From Desulfobacterales bacterium (GTDB lineage Bacteria; Desulfobacterota; Desulfobacteria; Desulfobacterales; UBA5852), in the NCBI GenBank assembly GCA_963674755.2, contig CAXXVS010000002.1:1056001-1120000 (forward strand): a stretch of 64,000 nucleotides of DNA, given 5' to 3'. This document shows, in pieces, positions 23,671 to 29,852 of this stretch; within the stretch, counting starts at the first letter, position 1, and every line of letters starts with the position of its first letter. The position numbers were made by a program, and so were the translations under genes. The notes under the pieces were generated by a model, which saw nothing but the letters and a program-made list of their open reading frames with translations, had not been told where the DNA came from and did no database searches.

Positions 23671-24180
23671 CTACATGCCGGCCTTGGTCTGGGGTTCGGC
23701 CGTAGACGCATGGCGTCTTTCTTTCGCAAACGCCTGAAGACCGCGCAGAAGTTCCACTTCACCTTCCATTAAACCGCAGTGCTGTGAAATTCGGTTGGCG
23801 CTCGCCCCCCGATTCATCATTTCTTCCGCCAGGCGATAGCGCCGCTGGCGTTCCCAGCCGCCGTTGCCAATCGACTGCGGTAAACGATCATGGTCAGACG
23901 CTTTTGAATCCACGCCGGTTCCCATCAGGCGCAGCGACGCAAACTCCCTTGCCAAGGACTGCTGCAGATTGTCATAGGCCTTTTGGGACTGTTGCGTCAT
24001 CATATGCAAGGATACTTGATCCGCAAACCCGGCGGAGGAGTTGCCCTCGCGTGCCTTGAGCACCAGGCGTCCATATTTGCGCCGGTTAACCAGTAGAAAT
24101 AGAATCAGCGCCAAACTGCAGGCTATCGCTAACCCATTCAAGATAGCGGCCAAATCGATGTGATGGGAGATCGTTTCCAT
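23671..24180 (-). CDS. Membrane-anchored protein with DUF2802-like C-terminal HTH
   Basis: N-terminal TM helix; C-terminal AEEMMNRGASANRISQHCGLMEGEVELL resembles the flagella-associated DUF2802 pattern; AAGGA RBS. Confidence 0.65.
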   Translation of the reverse strand: METISHHIDLAAILNGLAIACSLALILFLLVNRRKYGRLVLKAREGNSSAGFADQVSLHMMTQQSQKAYDNLQQSLAREFASLRLMGTGVDSKASDHDRLPQSIGNGGWERQRRYRLAEEMMNRGASANRISQHCGLMEGEVELLRGLQAFAKERRHASTAEPQTKAGM

Positions 24181-24224: not shown

Positions 24225-24482
24225 TCAGATCCGCACGTCAATGCGCCGTCCGGTTGACGATTGCCCCTCATTACCCGCGGAAGTTTGAGAATTCTCATTC
24301 AGTTCAGCGCCTGTTTGTTGATCTGTTGGGGCGTGTGTCGATTCTTCCGGGTTGGTCTGTGATTCGTTCCCACCTTGCTGTTGACGTTCTTTGTGAGAAT
24401 CCGGGCGGCGTTCCACTGCGCGCAATGGTCCAGACGGTGTGATGACTCCGATAGAACCTGTCCGGCGAATGCTGTCGACCAT
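24225..24482 (-). CDS. Small hypothetical protein downstream of fliA
   Basis: Strong GGGAGG RBS; low-complexity middle; C-terminal GRRIDVRI resembles the G..ID... tails of small flagella-linked proteins. Confidence 0.6.
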   Translation of the reverse strand: MVDSIRRTGSIGVITPSGPLRAVERRPDSHKERQQQGGNESQTNPEESTHAPTDQQTGAELNENSQTSAGNEGQSSTGRRIDVRI

Positions 24483-24548: not shown

Positions 24549-25337
24549 CTAATGTTCGATAACGTTGGCGCGCCGCAGTTTATTGCGCAGTCGGATAATG
24601 GCCTGGGAATGAATCTGGGAGACTCTGGATTCCGTAATATTCAAAACTTTCCCGGTTTCCTTCATGTTGAGCTCGTCAAAATAATACAAAGACAACACCA
24701 ATTTCTCTTTGTCCGGCAATTGTTCGATCGCTTGCGCCATCACAACCTTGAGCTCGTTCAGGTTGGCCATGGAAAAGGCATCCGGGGCGTCGTCGGTGAC
24801 ATATTTCAAAAGACGCCCCTTGTCATTGGAGTCGGAATAGCCCATCTCTTCGAAGCTGATAAAAGAAATGGTGGAGAGCTTCTTGATGGCATCGAGCTGT
24901 CCAAGATCAATTTGCAGCATCTCGGCAACTTCATGGTCATCGGCATCACGTCCCAATTGCTGTTCGAGCAGTGCATAGGCGTGATCCATCTCCCGGATCT
25001 TGCGACGGTTGGACCGTGAGAGAAAGTCGCGCGACCGCAATTCGCTTAACACCGCCCCGCGAATGCGGTGGGTGGCATAAGTGATAAATTTGTTGTCGCG
25101 GCTGGCGTCATAGCGATCGATGGCCTGAATCAATCCGATCACGCCGACGTTGTAAAGATCATCGATGTCAACCGAGGAAGGCAGGTGGATCGCCATCCGA
25201 TTGACAATCCGTTTGACGTGCGGCAGGTACTCCATCATCAACTGCTCCCGGCTTTGCGGCAAGTTCTGCTCCATCTGATGGGTATCGCTTTTCAATGCTT
25301 TCATAAGGGCACCTTTGGAACGTTTTAACGGTTCCAT
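24549..25337 (-). CDS. fliA: RNA polymerase sigma-28 factor
   Basis: DDLYNVGVIGLIQAIDRYD, RIRGAVL.ELR..D and ITESRVSQIHSQA motifs; start may be 25304. Confidence 0.95.
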   Translation of the reverse strand: MEPLKRSKGALMKALKSDTHQMEQNLPQSREQLMMEYLPHVKRIVNRMAIHLPSSVDIDDLYNVGVIGLIQAIDRYDASRDNKFITYATHRIRGAVLSELRSRDFLSRSNRRKIREMDHAYALLEQQLGRDADDHEVAEMLQIDLGQLDAIKKLSTISFISFEEMGYSDSNDKGRLLKYVTDDAPDAFSMANLNELKVVMAQAIEQLPDKEKLVLSLYYFDELNMKETGKVLNITESRVSQIHSQAIIRLRNKLRRANVIEH

Positions 25338-25352
25338 CGAAATTGCATGAGG

Positions 25353-26270
25353 TTAATATTTTCGTGAAATGACACCATCCTGGAAGATATGGCCCCAGAA
25401 AAGATGGGGCACGCCCTGGTCGACTTTGACTTCCGGCAGCGCCTTGGTTCTGCGGGCCAGGTTCCGAAAGCCATACGTCGCCGCCGATTCCGGATAGGCC
25501 TGGCTGATGATCCGCTGCTTTTTCACACAGCGCACGAGATTCTCATCCTGCTGAATACAGCCGAAATAATCCATATTGATGGCCAGGAACTTCTGGGTGA
25601 CCAGGTTTAGTTGGCGGAAAATCTCGCGGCCTTCCTGTTCGCTGGACACCTGGTTGACAATCAAATGGCAGGTTTTCTCGGCATAGCGGGTGGAAAGAAC
25701 TTTCATCAGGGCGTAGGCGTCTGTAATCGAGGTCGGCTCGGGTGTTACCACCACCATAATTTCCTGGGCCGAAACACTGAAATCCATCACATTCGGAGAG
25801 ATACCGGCGGCTGAATCGATCAGAAGGATGTCGATTGAATCCAGAAGTTGATCCAGCGCACTGAGCAAACGCATTTTCTGTTCGCGTGAAAGCTGGGTGA
25901 GCTCCTGAATTCCGGAGGCGGCCGGTAAAATGGATACGTCACCCGGCCCTTCGATAACGATATCCCGGATCGATTTTTCGCCCGATAAAACATGGGATAG
26001 ATTGAACCGGGGGGCCAGCCCGAGCAGAATATCAAGATTGCCCAGGCCGAGATCGGCATCGAGGATCAGCACCCGCTGGCCCGCACGGCTCAGCTGATAC
26101 CCTAAGTTGGCGACAATATTGGTTTTCCCAACACCGCCCTTGCCACTGGTAACCGATATTATCCGTGCGGCTGAGCGTCTGGCGGCCGTGAGGCCGGCCA
26201 TGGAAACCGCCGGCCGGGGTTTGCGGGAATGCAGCGAAATGATTTTCTCGTTGAACTGCTGTGTTGTCAT
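25353..26270 (-). CDS. flhG: MinD/ParA-family flagellar number regulator FlhG/FleN
   Basis: SGKGGVGKT, DADLGLGN and PEPTSITDAYALMK motifs; lies between flhF and fliA. Confidence 0.93.
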   Translation of the reverse strand: MTTQQFNEKIISLHSRKPRPAVSMAGLTAARRSAARIISVTSGKGGVGKTNIVANLGYQLSRAGQRVLILDADLGLGNLDILLGLAPRFNLSHVLSGEKSIRDIVIEGPGDVSILPAASGIQELTQLSREQKMRLLSALDQLLDSIDILLIDSAAGISPNVMDFSVSAQEIMVVVTPEPTSITDAYALMKVLSTRYAEKTCHLIVNQVSSEQEGREIFRQLNLVTQKFLAINMDYFGCIQQDENLVRCVKKQRIISQAYPESAATYGFRNLARRTKALPEVKVDQGVPHLFWGHIFQDGVISRKY

Positions 26271-26308
26271 CGAGGTACGGCTCCTGGCTTTTAATCGAGA
26301 CCTTGGGG

Positions 26309-27682
26309 CTATAGGGCAGCGCGCTCCCTGGACAAAATACCGGTGATAGACAAGTGTTGCGGATTACAATAACGGCACGGTTTGAAACGGTGGTTCAGGG
26401 CTTCGGCAAACGAACCGAACTCGACAATGTTGGCCCGGTTGATCAGCCGGATCCATTTGCATTCGGGGCGATGGAAGATGTCGGAATTCTTGTTGGCGAG
26501 ATAAATTCCGCTGAGCTGTTCGTCCGGCCCAAGGCCGGTCTTCGGTGGATGCCCGTCTTCTAACCCTTCGGGGGCATTCCCTGCTTCCTGCGGCAGGAAA
26601 CGGGCCGTCAGGTTTTCAATCGTCGCTTGCGTCAAGTCAAGCGGAACCCGGGGGCCGGCACTATAGTAATAGACAGCCAAGCCGTGCCGGCAAAGGAAAT
26701 TGACCAGGTCCGTGTAAGCTCGTGTCAGGTCGGTTTTGGTGATGACGGTTCCCACAGGGTTTAAAACGGCATAGCGCTGGAGGGTGGCGTTTAAATCGTC
26801 TTCACGATTTTCAGCGCTCACGACCAGAAGTGGTCGTACGCCTCCCAAGCGCTGGAATTGGGCTTGAATGCACGTCATCTGCTGGTTGGTATGGGGATGG
26901 ACCGCCGGGGTGTCGATTAGAATGATGCGGCAGTGTTGCAATCGTTCCAAGGCCTGCGGCATATCGTTTTCCGTTTGCGGCAATGCCAGGGGAAGCTTCA
27001 TGCTGTCGGCATAGCACTGGAGCTGTTCATGGCCGCCAATGCGATGACGATCCAGAGAAATCAGGCCGACCGATTTTTTTTGGGTGTACGTGAAAGCGGC
27101 CGCCAGTTTGGCCAGGGTTACGGTTTTCCCCACGCCGGCGTTTCCCACCAGGCCAATGAGGGTCGGACCGTCCTGGTTCAGCTGCACGGCCCCCACGGTC
27201 AATCCGTTTTTCGCCAGGTAGCGTCCCATCGAGAGATCGTTGGCCTGATGCGAAGGGCGCTGCGCTTTGTCAACGCCTTCTTGACCGAGGGCATCGGTCT
27301 GCGCGGATGACCGGCGCGCTGCATCATGGGTTTGGTAATGTCTGACCGCGCGCGCCGCCAGGGCTTTAAATCTTGTGATATCATTGCGCTGGTGGACTGT
27401 TTCCCGACGGGCGTGATTGGCGGCCGCCCCGTCGACGGCAACCGGCTGCCCTTTTCCGTCGGGGAGTTTTTTCGCTGCAAGGTTACGATCGGGCAGCGTA
27501 CCCGGGTAGTCTTCATCCACGGCCGCCGTCACTTCCACCCCGATCTTGCGCGAAATGCCGAGCAGACGATTTTCCCGCCGCAAGTCCTTGGCCGACAGGA
27601 TAACGGCTTCCGGCCCGAGAGCCCGTTTGATCTGGCGCAAGGCATCCGTCATGTTTTTGGCCTCAAAGCGCTTAATCTGCAT
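26309..27682 (-). CDS. flhF: FlhF SRP-type GTPase with C-terminal Ada-like zinc-binding domain
   Basis: N-terminal MQIKRFEAKNMTDALRQIKRALGPEAVIL; G motifs GNAGVGKT, DRHRIGG, DTPA and TKTD; extra C-terminal H-x3-C-x27-C-x2-C domain. Confidence 0.9.
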   Translation of the reverse strand: MQIKRFEAKNMTDALRQIKRALGPEAVILSAKDLRRENRLLGISRKIGVEVTAAVDEDYPGTLPDRNLAAKKLPDGKGQPVAVDGAAANHARRETVHQRNDITRFKALAARAVRHYQTHDAARRSSAQTDALGQEGVDKAQRPSHQANDLSMGRYLAKNGLTVGAVQLNQDGPTLIGLVGNAGVGKTVTLAKLAAAFTYTQKKSVGLISLDRHRIGGHEQLQCYADSMKLPLALPQTENDMPQALERLQHCRIILIDTPAVHPHTNQQMTCIQAQFQRLGGVRPLLVVSAENREDDLNATLQRYAVLNPVGTVITKTDLTRAYTDLVNFLCRHGLAVYYYSAGPRVPLDLTQATIENLTARFLPQEAGNAPEGLEDGHPPKTGLGPDEQLSGIYLANKNSDIFHRPECKWIRLINRANIVEFGSFAEALNHRFKPCRYCNPQHLSITGILSRERAAL

Positions 27683-29774
27683 GCTTCATCTCCACCGTAC
27701 CAATCGTTTGAATCTGCGCATTGTTCATGACCTCATCATAGGATAGCACCGCCAAGTTGGGCACCATCCGGTCGATCAACCGTTTGAAGTGCGGTCGCAC
27801 CTGCGCGGAGCACAAGACGACCGGCTGGCTGTTGAGGGCGGCAAACGTCTCGATGTGTTTGCCCAGAGCGTGAACGATCTTCTCCACGGAACGCGGATCC
27901 ATGGCCAAAAAGCTGCCATGATCCGTACGCTGGATCGCATCGGAGACGGCTTTTTCGACGCTATGGTCGAGGGTCACCCCGGCCAATGTGCCATCGGTTT
28001 TCAGGTAGGTTCGTACAATCGAGCGCGCCAAGGCTTGGCGGACATACTCCGTCAGAATATCCAAGTCTTTGGTCATGGGCGCCCAATCCGCGAGGGTCTC
28101 CAGAATGGCCAGCAGATCGCGAATCGGAACTTGCTCTTTCAACAGGTTTTGCAGCACCTTGACGACACCGCCCAGCGGCAGGAGATTGGGAATCAATTCC
28201 TCCACCACCTTGGGGTAGGTCTGCCTGAAATGGTCCAACATGCGTTGGACTTCCTGGCGTCCGATCAGTTCATGTGCATGGCGGGTGATCACATCCGAAA
28301 TATGCGTCGTCATGACGGTGGCCAGATCGACAACGGTAAAGCCGTTTGCAATAGCGCTTTCGCGATAGTTCTCTTTGATCCATACGGCGGGCAGACCGTA
28401 CGTCGGCTCATTGGTCGAAATGCCTTCGATCTGGCCGACGGCATCACCGGGGTTCATGGCGAGAAAATGGTTCAGCATCAATTCCCCACGGGTGATTTCG
28501 TTTCCCTTGAGCATAATGCGATATTCTCCGGGCTGCAATTGCATGTTGTCCTGAATGTGAACTGGAGGCACAAGCAGCCCGATTTCATCCGCGGTCTGAT
28601 GCCGAATGGATTTGATGCGTGTTAAAAGCTCTCCGTTTTGCTCCACATCCACCAGTGGAATCAAACCGTAGCCGACCTCCAGGGATAAAATGTCGAGAGG
28701 CGGCAGTGTCTCGATGTTTTCGACGACGTTTTCCGATTGCGATAAAAGATCCGCAGCTTCCTCTTCCTTGGCGGCGTCATCACCGGCCTTGTATATGACA
28801 TAGGCCACGGCAGCTGCGAGGGCGGCCAACGTAATGAAGGGCAGGGTCGGCAACCCGGGAATCAAAGCAAACCCGAAAAGCACGGCTGAGGTAATACCGA
28901 TGGCGCGATGTTGCATAAGAACTTGCGAGGTGATGTCGCGTCCCAGACTGGACTCGGATCCGGCTCGGCTCACGATGATGCCGGCCGCGGTTGAAATGAT
29001 CAATGCCGGAATTTGCGAAACGAGGCCGTCGCCAACGGTCAGCAGGGTATAATTTTGAGCGGCATCGCCGAAGTTCATACCGTTTTGGAGGACTCCGATG
29101 GTCAAGCCGCCCAGGATATTGATCATCGTAATGATGATACCGGCAATGGCGTCTCCCCGTACGAATTTATTGGCGCCATCCATGGCGCCGTAATATTCGG
29201 CTTCACGGGCAATATTTTCACGGCGTTTGCGTGCTTCGTCTTCGGTAATGAGCCCGGCATTCATGTCTGCGTCAATGCTCATCTGCTTGCCGGGCATGGC
29301 GTCCAATGTAAAGCGCGCGGCCACTTCGGCAATCCGTCCCGCGCCTTTGGTAATGACCATGAAGTTGATGATGACCAGAATCAGGAAGACAATGATACCG
29401 ACTAAATAATTGCCGCCCACCACAAAGCTGCCGAAGGCCTGAATGACTTTGCCGGCAGCGCCGGTGCCTTCCATGCCGCCCAACAGGATGACCCGGGTGG
29501 AGGCAATATTGAGCGACAGACGAAACAGGGTGGCCAGGAGCAGAATCGTCGGAAAAGAGGACAATTGCAGGGGGTGGACGATATACATCCCCACCAGCAA
29601 AATGACGATGGAGAGGGTAATATTGAAGCTGAGCAGGAGGTCCAGAATAAACGCCGGCAGAGGGAGAATCATGAAAACCAGGATGCCTACGACCAGGACC
29701 GCCATGAGGATGTCGGAATTATTGGTCAGGGCGGCCAATTGCCCCGGAAGTTGTTTCTGCTCGGCGTATTCCAT
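27672..29774 (-). CDS. flhA: Flagellar export gate protein
   Basis: RIAEVAARFTLDAMPGKQMSIDAD and GAMDGANKFVRGDAIAG motifs; the sigma54 promoter overlapping 29840 supports a start at 29774. Confidence 0.97.
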   Translation of the reverse strand: MEYAEQKQLPGQLAALTNNSDILMAVLVVGILVFMILPLPAFILDLLLSFNITLSIVILLVGMYIVHPLQLSSFPTILLLATLFRLSLNIASTRVILLGGMEGTGAAGKVIQAFGSFVVGGNYLVGIIVFLILVIINFMVITKGAGRIAEVAARFTLDAMPGKQMSIDADMNAGLITEDEARKRRENIAREAEYYGAMDGANKFVRGDAIAGIIITMINILGGLTIGVLQNGMNFGDAAQNYTLLTVGDGLVSQIPALIISTAAGIIVSRAGSESSLGRDITSQVLMQHRAIGITSAVLFGFALIPGLPTLPFITLAALAAAVAYVIYKAGDDAAKEEEAADLLSQSENVVENIETLPPLDILSLEVGYGLIPLVDVEQNGELLTRIKSIRHQTADEIGLLVPPVHIQDNMQLQPGEYRIMLKGNEITRGELMLNHFLAMNPGDAVGQIEGISTNEPTYGLPAVWIKENYRESAIANGFTVVDLATVMTTHISDVITRHAHELIGRQEVQRMLDHFRQTYPKVVEELIPNLLPLGGVVKVLQNLLKEQVPIRDLLAILETLADWAPMTKDLDILTEYVRQALARSIVRTYLKTDGTLAGVTLDHSVEKAVSDAIQRTDHGSFLAMDPRSVEKIVHALGKHIETFAALNSQPVVLCSAQVRPHFKRLIDRMVPNLAVLSYDEVMNNAQIQTIGTVEMKHAD

Positions 29775-29834
29775 TCGTGTTCCGATAATAAAGGCTGAGG
29801 TTGACGGACGCTGCACGCGTTGACCGGAAGCATT

Positions 29835-29852
29835 TTGCATGAATCATGCCTA
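29835..29852 (-). promoter_or_regulatory. Sigma54 promoter upstream of flhA
   Basis: Minus strand TAGGCATGATTCATGCAA (GG-N10-GC). Confidence 0.7.

Follow-up and report, generated by a model that had tools for sequence, protein, structure and literature searches.

An FlhF GTPase with a C-terminal Ada_N-like module in the flagellar gene cluster of a Desulfobacterales bacterium

FlhF, Ada and the flagellar genes of the window

FlhF acts at the membrane, and together with FlhG it makes up the best-studied switch for the place and number of flagella; the mechanistic work on this switch has all been carried out on FlhFs of the B-N-G layout and on FlhGs that carry a DQAxxLR motif. Canonical FlhF forms homodimers in dependence on GTP, and the FlhG N-terminus stimulates its GTPase. 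Ffh (SRP54) consists of an NG domain, a linker and an RNA-binding M domain. For Ada, sequence-specific DNA binding is known to require the helix-turn-helix (HTH) domain of the protein.

The layout of Ffh also appears in a figure legend of PMC12826062, Cys38 of Ada has been described as the methyl acceptor (PMC10814553), and DQAxxLR is described as the activator motif of FlhG (PMC11236974). The N-terminal part of the Shewanella FlhF is given the name FliG-interaction domain (FID) in the same article. FipA is a DUF2802 membrane protein whose gene is located downstream of flhA-flhF-flhG-fliA (PMC11620751). Finally, small Ada-like zinc modules are grouped in ECOD as ADA_N-like (Cwp27, ArfC, ribosomal protein L4 of Cutibacterium, and ComEC/Rec2 of C. 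difficile), and these domains, carried by a ComEC/Rec2 protein and by cell-wall proteins, are mostly found at the C-termini of unrelated proteins (PMC12353581).

The stretch of DNA that we analyzed (hereafter the window) comprises 64,000 nucleotides from a Desulfobacterales bacterium. It contains the gene order flhA-flhF-flhG-fliA with a FipA-like gene after it, an arrangement that is shared with canonical FlhF (B-N-G; PDB IDs 2px0 and 8r9r; Shewanella, Vibrio, Bacillus). The features of the locus are as follows:

27672..29840, minus strand: flhA (Pfam FHIPEP, 922.8 bits)
26309..27682, minus strand: flhF, 457 codons, stop codon TAG; shares 11 bases with the end of flhA and ends 38 bases ahead of flhG
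27518..27682, minus strand: N-terminal structured part of the B domain, residues 1-55, FliG-interaction-type, three strands and one helix
27242..27508, minus strand: rest of the B domain, residues 59-147, predicted to be disordered (AF2 pLDDT <50) and without conserved columns
26588..27241, minus strand: NG (SRP-type GTPase) domain, residues 148-365, AF2 pLDDT mostly >90
27122-27145, minus strand: G1, GNAGVGKT, fitting GxxGxGK[TS]
26903-26914, minus strand: G3, DTPA in place of DTAG
26729-26740, minus strand: G4, TKTD, fitting [TS]KxD
26513..26587, minus strand: linker tethering the tail, residues 366-390 (25 residues), disordered, AF2 pLDDT about 30-57
26354..26512, minus strand: predicted Ada_N-like zinc module, residues 391-443, Pfam PF02805
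26471-26473, 26459-26461, 26375-26377 and 26366-26368, minus strand: codons of the putative ligands H404, C408, C436 and C439, respectively
26312..26353, minus strand: short C-terminal segment, residues 444-457 (14 residues), a low-confidence helix conserved in the window's close clade
25353..26270, minus strand: flhG, MinD/ParA-type ATPase (Pfam AAA_31, CbiA, ParA)
24549..25337, minus strand: fliA sigma factor (Pfam Sigma70 r2, r3, r4)
23671..24180, minus strand: FipA-like gene, encoding an N-terminal hydrophobic helix and DUF2802

A first-pass annotation, made from the letters of the DNA, had read ORF 26309..27682 as an FlhF that runs on into an Ada-like tail. The hmmscan check that it proposed found both domains above their cut-offs, namely the SRP54-type G domain (PF00448, residues 174-363, E 2.7e-22) and Ada_Zn_binding (PF02805). 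The closest PDB relatives of the protein are FlhFs (8r9r_A, E 9.6e-20; 2px0_A, E 3.1e-17), and the NCBIfam FlhF equivalog TIGR03499 aligns from residue 1 onwards with a score of 169.8 bits, slightly below its cut-off of 174.15.

Residues 1-55 (AF2 pLDDT 85-95; strands at 2-8, 27-38 and 43-55, helix at 11-22) are the most conserved region of the family, and residues 2-55 are predicted to form a FliG-interaction-type domain, the model matching the description in PMC11236974. This domain, the disordered B region, the NG domain, G1 and G4 are all held in common with canonical FlhF. On the other hand, the window FlhF differs in having a linker and a zinc module added after the G domain, in possessing DTPA at G3, where both solved FlhFs show DTAG at the aligned position and the window's own family DTPG or DTPA, and in being paired with an FlhG whose N-terminus reads NEKIISLHS at the place of the canonical DQAxxLR. 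The full-length AF2 model is confident for the NG domain and the tail, and of low confidence for the linker joining them, which shows no conservation and varies in length among relatives.

The FipA-like gene scored 35 bits against PF10975 in the genome search, above the cut-off, and 33.0 against a cut-off of 33.5 in hmmscan. The FimV/HubP core (TIGR03505) had no match in the genome, and the control genomes were likewise without a match. Inside the flhF span, the contigs of one metatranscriptome reach 26912-27182 and 27503-27709 only and stop short of the tail.

Fold, putative metal ligands and relatives of the tail

PF02805 matches residues 393-441 (window 26360-26506), in frame after the G domain, scoring 31.3 bits within the full-length protein and 35.2 bits when the tail is scanned alone (curated cut-off 23), and the sole NCBIfam match on the tail is the Ada equivalog PRK15435 (E 4.9e-5), confined to the zinc module. 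The only solved sequence relatives of the tail are Ada N-domains (4 out of 4 hits). A phmmer comparison with the solved N-domains of E. coli Ada (N-Ada10; PF02805; PDB IDs 1adn, 1eyf, 1wpk, 1u8b and 1zgw) gave a best E of 1.8e-4 and aligned H404 with C38, C408 with C42, C436 with C69 and C439 with C72, the loop being longer by one residue in the FlhF tail. The motif H-x3-C-x27-C-x2-C, and its correspondence to the four metal-ligand positions of Ada, had both been proposed in the first-pass annotation and are upheld by this alignment.

Predicted structure leads to the same family. A model of the tail alone has a pLDDT of 93-95 over residues 1-50, and with this model the first three Foldseek ranks are Ada structures (TM 0.59-0.67), the top match being 1u8b_A (TM 0.67, rmsd 1.3 Å over 49 columns, 35% identity); VIA-align gives Z scores of 7.0 and 5.0 to Ada and 3.5 to the best other structure. 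Leads from an ESM Atlas search with the tail were all below 0.9, and each is a small Ada_Zn_binding protein. Pfam score, N-Ada fold match and aligned ligands thus support the earlier view of a non-canonical FlhF with an added Ada-like module. 'Sunset domain', a name given to such modules, had no NCBIfam match, and the phrase returned no relevant paper in a literature search.

The four putative ligands are invariant in 62 out of 62 aligned relatives, and of the 120 best relatives all but one, which is cut off at its C-terminus, show the motif with identical spacing (119 of 120), a recurrence far beyond chance. N-Ada and the FlhF tail are also alike in the basic residues that come right after the second and third ligands, positions at which 99% of 143 FlhF tails have K or R. 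Net charge in these 143 tails has a median of +3 and is positive in 95%. Position +5, one of these, is K or R in 99% of FlhF tails and position +6 is Trp in 94%, the Trp being present also in 37% of non-FlhF copies. FlhF tails form a tight subgroup of their own with additional invariant residues: counted from the His, Ala-Asn (-8/-7) and Ser-Asp (-4/-3) are variable in other copies, and position +28 is Arg in FlhF tails and Gly elsewhere. These FlhF-specific columns could mark a protein-binding surface.

Ada and the FlhF tail differ at the first ligand, which is the methyl-accepting Cys38 in the former and His in the latter, and in the place of the module, which lies at the N-terminus of a transcription factor/repair protein in Ada and at the C-terminus of a GTPase here. 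Unlike Ada, the window FlhF has no Pfam or NCBIfam match to an AraC-type HTH or an MGMT domain; the absence of the Ada HTH is a point against nucleic-acid binding by the tail. In the 6.7-Mb genome PF02805 is found in the FlhF tail only, which leaves no canonical Ada with a role for the tail to echo.

At E <= 1e-3, the tail profile matches 11,413 representative proteins. Pfam was run on 117 of the best 150 matches and identified 14 FlhF pieces, 11 SNase, 5 Lactamase_B and 1 Endonuclea_NS_2 proteins, with the module standing alone or in arrays in 85 of the 117; His is the first ligand in 258 of the 261 ligand motifs in these scanned best matches. The FlhF tail is a member of a very large His-first Ada_N-like subfamily that includes solo modules, tandem arrays, and SNase, MBL-fold and NS-type nucleases. 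The nuclease and tandem-array copies are of the same kind as the ECOD ADA_N-like examples, and together with ComEC/Rec2 (PMC12353581) they substantiate the earlier statement that His-for-Cys variants occur on nucleases and competence-type proteins. The FlhF tail shares its C-terminal placement with most ECOD domains of this group, whereas the ECOD examples are Gram-positive, largely secreted or membrane proteins and FlhF is a cytoplasmic protein from another phylum (PMC12353581). Nuclease-linked copies are mostly found in signal-peptide proteins; their action outside the cell (PMC12353581), set beside the cytoplasmic location of FlhF, is a second point against nucleic-acid binding by the tail.

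The first-pass annotation knew of no described FlhF with this architecture, a claim that stands in part. Our literature search found no paper that describes an Ada-like module in FlhF, section 2.2 of PMC12353581, on ADA_N-like domains, makes no mention of FlhF, and a term search of a 2025 review on the diversification of the FlhF-FlhG switch found neither 'zinc' nor 'Desulfo', and 'Ada' only within words like 'adaptation'. The domain as such, however, is already labeled in NCBI annotation, where the name given to these proteins is 'Ada metal-binding domain-containing protein'.

Occurrence and evolution of the tail, and the FlhG change

The search for this architecture in relatives, also proposed at first pass, detected the fusion in at least 83 of the 221 FlhF-bearing genomes in a sample of 401 genomes from the window's order, where 83 of the 150 FlhF matches listed extend through the tail. 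P-loop and tail share one reading frame in 26 of 27 FlhF loci of other genomes, the 27th ending at a contig end, and where contigs from three other studies span the G domain-linker-tail junction, they differ by substitutions only, with no indels or joints. That flhF was joined to a separate small gene by a frameshift or misassembly, a danger raised in the first-pass annotation, is refuted by the junction-bridging contigs, the recurrence in the order and the shared frame, which leave this reading practically no probability.

In a tree of the FlhF core every tail-bearing FlhF falls within one clade, with twelve tail-less FlhFs nested inside it. Exclusive monophyly of the tail-bearing FlhFs is rejected (p-AU 0.001). 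Because the tail-bearing forms make up one clade in which tail-less forms are nested, the pattern fits a single gain of the tail at the base of this clade, followed by its loss or replacement in several sublineages; some of the nested tail-less FlhFs bear unrelated, conserved C-terminal extensions instead. Taking architecture, fold and evolution jointly, we regard it as very nearly certain that the ORF is one genuine FlhF gene with a C-terminal Ada_N-like module gained in one clade.

The partner protein has changed in the same clade. None of 32 loci within the tail clade has an FlhG with DQAxxLR, compared with 15 of 18 outside; N.VI.L-type motifs take its place inside the clade. As a trait specific to the tail this change is rejected, since it is found also with nested tail-less FlhFs, and DTPG at G3 is rejected likewise, being found with nested tail-less FlhFs and in a sister group. 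Gain of the tail and change of FlhG amount to a single event on one branch and therefore lend no statistical support to a functional link. Genomes that have the tail and genomes that lack it both showed DUF2802 matches near flhF (examples inspected), and these matches are mostly below the Pfam cut-off, with 15 of the 401 genomes above it.

What the tail may bind

Our best explanation is that of a genuine tailed FlhF with a structural zinc and a nucleic-acid-binding head, and as a whole we put it just short of an even chance. The tail would bind one structural zinc via its His and three Cys residues, would not carry out methyl transfer, and would act as a binding head that is positively charged and held on a flexible tether. 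The most likely ligand of this head, judging from N-Ada and the nuclease-linked copies, would be the phosphate backbone of DNA or RNA, in which case FlhF would contact the nucleoid or a transcript besides the flagellar base. We infer nucleic-acid binding from the nuclease company of the module and from its conserved positive charge; binding of nucleic acid or another polyanion by the tail is tentative, and its likelihood lies noticeably under one half. Binding to flagellar promoters has been reported for purified C. jejuni FlhF, which is itself without such a tail (PMC7105676), so that DNA contact by an FlhF would have a precedent. A complex prediction for the NG domain (148-365), the tail (391-457) and zinc, run without controls, returned a score of 0.00 and a mark of 0.32, a result that weighs neither for nor against docking.

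Alternatively, the tail might dock a protein within a rewired FlhF-FlhG switch and so set the position of FlhF or the timing of its GTPase, with the FlhG N-terminus, the FipA-like protein, FliG or a polar landmark as the partner. We consider this unlikely but worth serious attention. The tail clade coincides with the exchange of the FlhG motif and G3 is altered too, while tail-less members have kept the changed FlhG motif, making it independent of the tail, and the gain of the tail and the FlhG change are the one branch event described above. A FipA-like gene is present in the cluster, but DUF2802 genes lie near flhF irrespective of the tail, and the FipA of γ-proteobacteria binds FlhFs that are tail-less (PMC11620751). 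Docking is also suggested by the invariant surface-type columns that other copies of the module lack, and by the other conserved C-terminal extensions of nested tail-less FlhFs, as if the docking element were exchangeable. Indeed, a replaceable element for docking or spacing would account for these nested forms and their extensions no less well than a DNA-binding head would.

Returning to the nucleic-acid-binding head, Ffh is topologically like the window FlhF, as both have an SRP-type NG domain followed by a flexible linker and a small C-terminal binding domain. The M domain of Ffh and the Ada-like module are not homologous, and that the FlhF tail binds RNA is no more than a possibility. It is conceivable, if rather improbable, that the FlhF of this clade is an Ffh-like, nucleic-acid-binding SRP-type GTPase whose tail would hold an RNA (a flagellar mRNA or a small RNA) or else the chromosome in the vicinity of flagellar genes; the earliest flagellar building blocks, or the transcripts for them, would in this way arrive at the pole, and the loss of DQAxxLR from FlhG throughout the clade would belong to the same rewiring.

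There is a slim chance that anionic phospholipid head groups, which are phosphodiesters as in DNA, are the ligand of the basic zinc module, and that the module helps to hold FlhF at the polar membrane. The conserved positive charge beside the ligands, the near-invariant Trp that follows it and the flexible tether would suit this role, and so would the action of FlhF at the membrane. Against it stand the sharing of the Trp with more than a third of non-FlhF copies (the 37% given above) and the FipA-like membrane anchor already encoded in the cluster, and we know of no lipid binder in the domain family of the tail.

Slimmer still is the chance that the His-Cys3 site senses zinc or redox state, the latter an idea of the first-pass annotation, which had proposed that the module could link polar flagellum placement to DNA or redox state. 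Oxidation or loss of zinc would unfold the tail and alter FlhF activity, so that flagellation in an anaerobe would be coupled to its redox state. The strictly conserved ligands, three of them Cys, in a cytoplasmic protein of anaerobes might suggest this. Specific support is absent, however, a purely structural site equally predicts conserved ligands, and many subfamily copies are carried by secreted nucleases outside the cell, where thiol-based sensing is unlikely.

Lastly, the homology of the tail to N-Ada could mean that a zinc-bound Cys accepts methyl groups of alkylated DNA and the tail thereby reports alkylation damage, but the first-pass annotation had already judged this unlikely, and we find hardly any room for it, because the Cys38 position, the methyl acceptor of Ada (PMC10814553), is a His in each of the 119 intact FlhF tails, with His likewise in all but three of the 261 motifs of the wider subfamily, and both the HTH and the MGMT domain are absent from FlhF.

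A large and ecologically important clade of sulfate-reducer type therefore departs in three linked ways from the FlhF-FlhG systems on which the mechanistic work has been done: by the zinc module of FlhF, by the change at G3, and by replacement of the FlhG activator motif. A tail that binds nucleic acid would give the placement GTPase its first built-in link to DNA or RNA, and one that binds protein would point to a new partner; the tail is a small, well-folding domain with which either reading is directly testable, and it offers the His-first ADA_N-like subfamily a cytoplasmic, assayable member. Should the Ffh-like reading be true, FlhF in this clade would have a targeting role nearer to its SRP ancestors than that of any FlhF studied to date.

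FlhF and its C-terminal zinc module

The genes at the locus all lie on the minus strand, in the order flhB, flhA, flhF, flhG and fliA:

before flhA in gene order, minus strand: flhB (ORF list alone)
27672-29840, minus strand: flhA (Pfam)
26309-27682, minus strand: flhF, encoding a 457-residue protein
25353-26270, minus strand: flhG (Pfam)
24549-25337, minus strand: fliA (Pfam)
24225-24482, minus strand: ORF of 85 codons between fliA and the FipA-like gene, without a Pfam match
23671-24180, minus strand: ORF of 169 residues downstream of fliA

Judged by its sequence, the 457-residue protein is FlhF on three lines: SRP54 spans residues 174-363 (Pfam, E 2.7e-22), TIGR03499 aligns from residue 1 (NCBIfam; 169.8 bits, slightly below the curated cut-off of 174.15), and the closest solved structures are the FlhF chains 8r9r_A (E 9.6e-20) and 2px0_A (E 3.1e-17). 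It differs from canonical FlhF in this slightly low equivalog score and in its G3 GTPase motif, which reads DTPA instead of DTAG (26903-26914, minus strand).

The first-pass annotation had FlhF continuing into an Ada-like domain, and this is correct, as are the coordinates it gave: Ada_Zn_binding (PF02805) matches residues 393-441, in frame after the G domain, scoring 31.3 bits in the whole FlhF and 35.2 bits for the tail alone (cut-off 23). When the tail was compared with all solved chains (phmmer), the four distinct sequences recovered were all the E. coli Ada N-terminal domain (best E 1.8e-4), with H404, C408, C436 and C439 aligning to Ada C38, C42, C69 and C72; the loop in between is one residue longer than in Ada. 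In Ada the zinc-bound Cys38 is described as accepting the methyl group from methylphosphotriesters (PMC10814553); the ECOD paper gives the acceptor as Cys69 (PMC12353581), and we take Cys38 to be the acceptor.

AlphaFold2, run on the full-length protein with an alignment of 62 relatives, models three parts with confidence: an N-terminal domain of three strands and one helix (residues 2-55), the NG domain and the tail (pLDDT 84-87). Residues 59-147 come out as disordered, and the linker that precedes the tail (366-390) has low confidence (pLDDT about 30). Folded alone from 18 sequences, the tail reached pLDDT 93-95 across its first 50 residues. Ada entries took ranks 1-3 in a Foldseek search of the PDB with this model (1u8b_A: TM 0.67, rmsd 1.3 Å, 49 columns, 35% identity), and non-Ada matches had probabilities of at most 0.04. 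Independently, when 48,161 representative chains were scanned, Ada scored Z 7.0 and 5.0 and the next chain 3.5; a Z of 7 is by itself middling on that scan's own scale, and the Ada-fold assignment is safe because structural and sequence evidence agree. The tail thus belongs to Pfam Ada_Zn_binding and has the ADA_N-like fold. Nine positions (A396, N397, S400, D401, H404, C408, I414, C436 and C439) are unchanged in all 62 aligned relatives. What follows the GTPase is a flexible tether of about 25 residues carrying a folded, Ada-like His-Cys3 module that is under strong purifying selection.

FlhF tails are also basic (median net charge +3; 95% of 143 tails positive), and Lys or Arg directly follows the second and third ligands in 99% of the same 143. 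No other PF02805 domain was found in the 6.7-Mb genome, which is therefore without a canonical Ada. Unlike E. coli Ada, the FlhF of the window has no acceptor Cys, no HTH and no MGMT domain, and these absences rule it out as an Ada protein.

Reality, distribution and origin of the fusion

A frameshift or misassembly joining two genes, which the first-pass annotation had named among the results that would undo its reading, is excluded by relatives, by in-frame loci and by bridging contigs. Among the 120 best relatives in a collection of 5.8 billion proteins (87% to 31% identity), precomputed PF02805 and PF00448 occur together in 113, so the fusion does recur in relatives; direct inspection found H-x3-C-x27-C-x2-C, His first and with the same spacing, in 119, the last one ending inside the motif at its C-terminus. 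The tail and the FlhF P-loop share a frame in 26 of 27 FlhF loci from other genomes, the 27th ending at a contig edge; two additional fetched loci were non-FlhF. Logan contigs from three other studies, compared over 26250-27750, run from the G domain through the linker into the tail and differ by two to three substitutions, with no indels or joints, and a single contig of 6,303 bases spans 26322-27750.

Close relatives with named records are MAGs of Desulfobacterales and Desulfobacteraceae. Of 401 sampled genomes from the window's order, 221 had an FlhF match (E <= 1e-40). With a tail called where the match reached profile position 459 or more of 482, 83 of the best 150 of 224 FlhF matches reach through the tail and the remainder stop at 305-419; five more genomes have the tail on a separate contig, from a split flhF. 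Among the best 150 of 1,096 matches in a phylum sample (401 genomes), only those of two genomes, G000 and G390, reach the tail, and both belong to the window's order.

We inferred a maximum-likelihood phylogeny from the FlhF core, C-terminal extension removed (quick IQ-TREE, rooted on the outgroup locus L041), from 64 rows picked to span families, 34 with and 30 without the tail. Loci L003, L004, L006, L009, L015-L017 and L021-L027 were excluded as near-duplicate or truncated, and L018 and L019 as non-FlhF. All 34 tail rows fall in a single clade of 46 rows (SH-aLRT 99), in which 12 tail-less rows are nested; the other 18 lie outside. An exclusive clade of tail-bearing FlhFs was ruled out by the AU test (lnL difference 109.6, p-AU 0.001), and under one genus code the tail-less L032-L034 have the tail-bearing L049 and L050 as their sister group (support 100). 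Tail presence requires a minimum of six changes; if just the starred branches are considered, two are forced. The simplest history is that the tail was gained once, in the clade's common ancestor, and later lost or replaced several times; whether the deepest node marks a gain or a loss depends on the root, an outgroup of our choice.

Several nested tail-less FlhFs (L032-L038 and L070) have other conserved C-terminal extensions where the zinc module would be, one type a PPEILAEKM.DFE-like helix and another MRWLPL with a basic, aromatic end after it. A short terminal [G/S/N]-Y-[R/S] motif, which may be a docking peptide, recurs in many FlhFs of the clade, whether or not they have the module (e.g. 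L031, L037, L042, L049, L056 and L057; a loose pattern matched 34 of 137 tails); the window's own clade ends differently (..RERAAL). In P0176, a metagenome protein of 125 aa, the FlhA C-terminus runs straight and in frame into an FlhF-type zinc tail, the remaining FlhF being absent; either a natural deletion or a chimeric contig would account for it.

Changes in FlhG and G3, and a FipA-like neighbor

FlhG is described as stimulating FlhF through an N-terminal DQAxxLR motif (PMC11236974). Outside the tail clade we found this motif in 15 of 18 frames downstream of flhF, the FlhG start not being captured in the other three; inside the clade it occurs in none of 32 loci (0/12 tail-less, 0/20 tail-bearing), and most of these FlhGs have an N.VI.L-type motif in its place. 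Within its first 20 codons the FlhG of the window reads NEKIISLHS where DQAxxLR is expected. The G3 motif is DTAG in 14 of 18 rows outside the clade; a sister group and most clade members have DTPG, and DTPA (Gly to Ala) is confined to close relatives of the window. The FlhG and G3 changes are clade traits, kept where the tail was lost, and constitute one evolutionary event. The FlhG change extends across the clade and does not depend on the tail.

The ORF at 23671-24180 codes for a hydrophobic helix at the N-terminus plus a DUF2802 domain (genome search 35 bits; hmmscan 33.0 against 33.5). It has the same position and build as FipA, an FlhF partner described in γ-proteobacteria (PMC11620751). 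DUF2802 matches lie close to flhF in many genomes of the order (104 of 401 at E <= 1e-3, 15 over the cut-off), and therefore FipA-like proteins seem to extend past the γ-proteobacteria.

Wider family and possible role of the module

A profile of 18 tails, run against 1.84 billion representative proteins, gave 11,413 matches at E <= 1e-3, of which 1,288 also passed E <= 1e-10. As many as seven tandem copies occur in the top matches. From the best 150, 33 were set aside as FlhF, 8 being among the 120 best relatives and 25 called by length (about 450-494 aa) and a single C-terminal match; a regular-expression filter (P-loop, G4-type motif, single module) later picked proteins of the same kind as these 25. 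The 117 scanned with Pfam comprised 14 FlhF pieces, one FlhA-end fragment, 11 proteins with SNase, 5 with a metallo-beta-lactamase domain, one with Endonuclea_NS_2 and 85 with modules or module arrays alone. His comes first in 258 of 261 ligand motifs from 142 proteins new to the profile search. One Bacillota locus encodes an MBL-fold protein that carries an N-terminal membrane segment and ends in the module, and a second encodes a stand-alone module protein of 68 residues. The ECOD curators place Cwp27, ArfC, ribosomal L4 of Cutibacterium and a ComEC/Rec2 protein in an 'ADA_N-like' group with functions still to be determined, and the section on that group does not mention FlhF (PMC12353581).

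We would expect the module to hold one structural zinc and, because the acceptor cysteine is replaced by His, to transfer no methyl group. Our best guess, a tentative one drawn by analogy, is that the head of the tail might bind the phosphate backbone of nucleic acid, since N-Ada does so and the nuclease-attached sister copies suggest the same; FlhF would thereby gain a contact to DNA or RNA. Such contact would not be unprecedented, as C. jejuni FlhF, without such a tail, has been reported to bind flagellar promoters by EMSA and ChIP-qPCR (PMC7105676). Against backbone binding stand the lack of an HTH in FlhF and the mostly extracellular nature of the nuclease-linked copies. Two further observations against it, that unrelated extensions took the tail's place in nested lineages and that FlhF tails possess invariant columns of their own, fit at least as well with the main, if somewhat doubtful, rival, in which the tail would be a protein-docking module. 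Less likely still are lipid binding, redox sensing and methyl acceptance of the Ada type.

The first-pass annotation knew of no described FlhF of this architecture. Among the papers listed by our literature searches, there was likewise none describing FlhF with an Ada-like zinc module, and none on Ada_Zn_binding that dealt with FlhF; by term search, 'zinc', 'Desulfo' and 'C-terminal extension' are absent from a 2025 review of FlhF-FlhG diversification, and 'Ada' matches there only within words like 'adaptation'. Yet the architecture was already visible in databases, some tail-bearing proteins being named 'Ada metal-binding domain-containing protein' by NCBI and FlhF by JGI. The tail, whose proposed function is an inference, genuinely modifies a much-studied switch; the modification is ancient and widespread, and it is linked with an altered FlhG activator.
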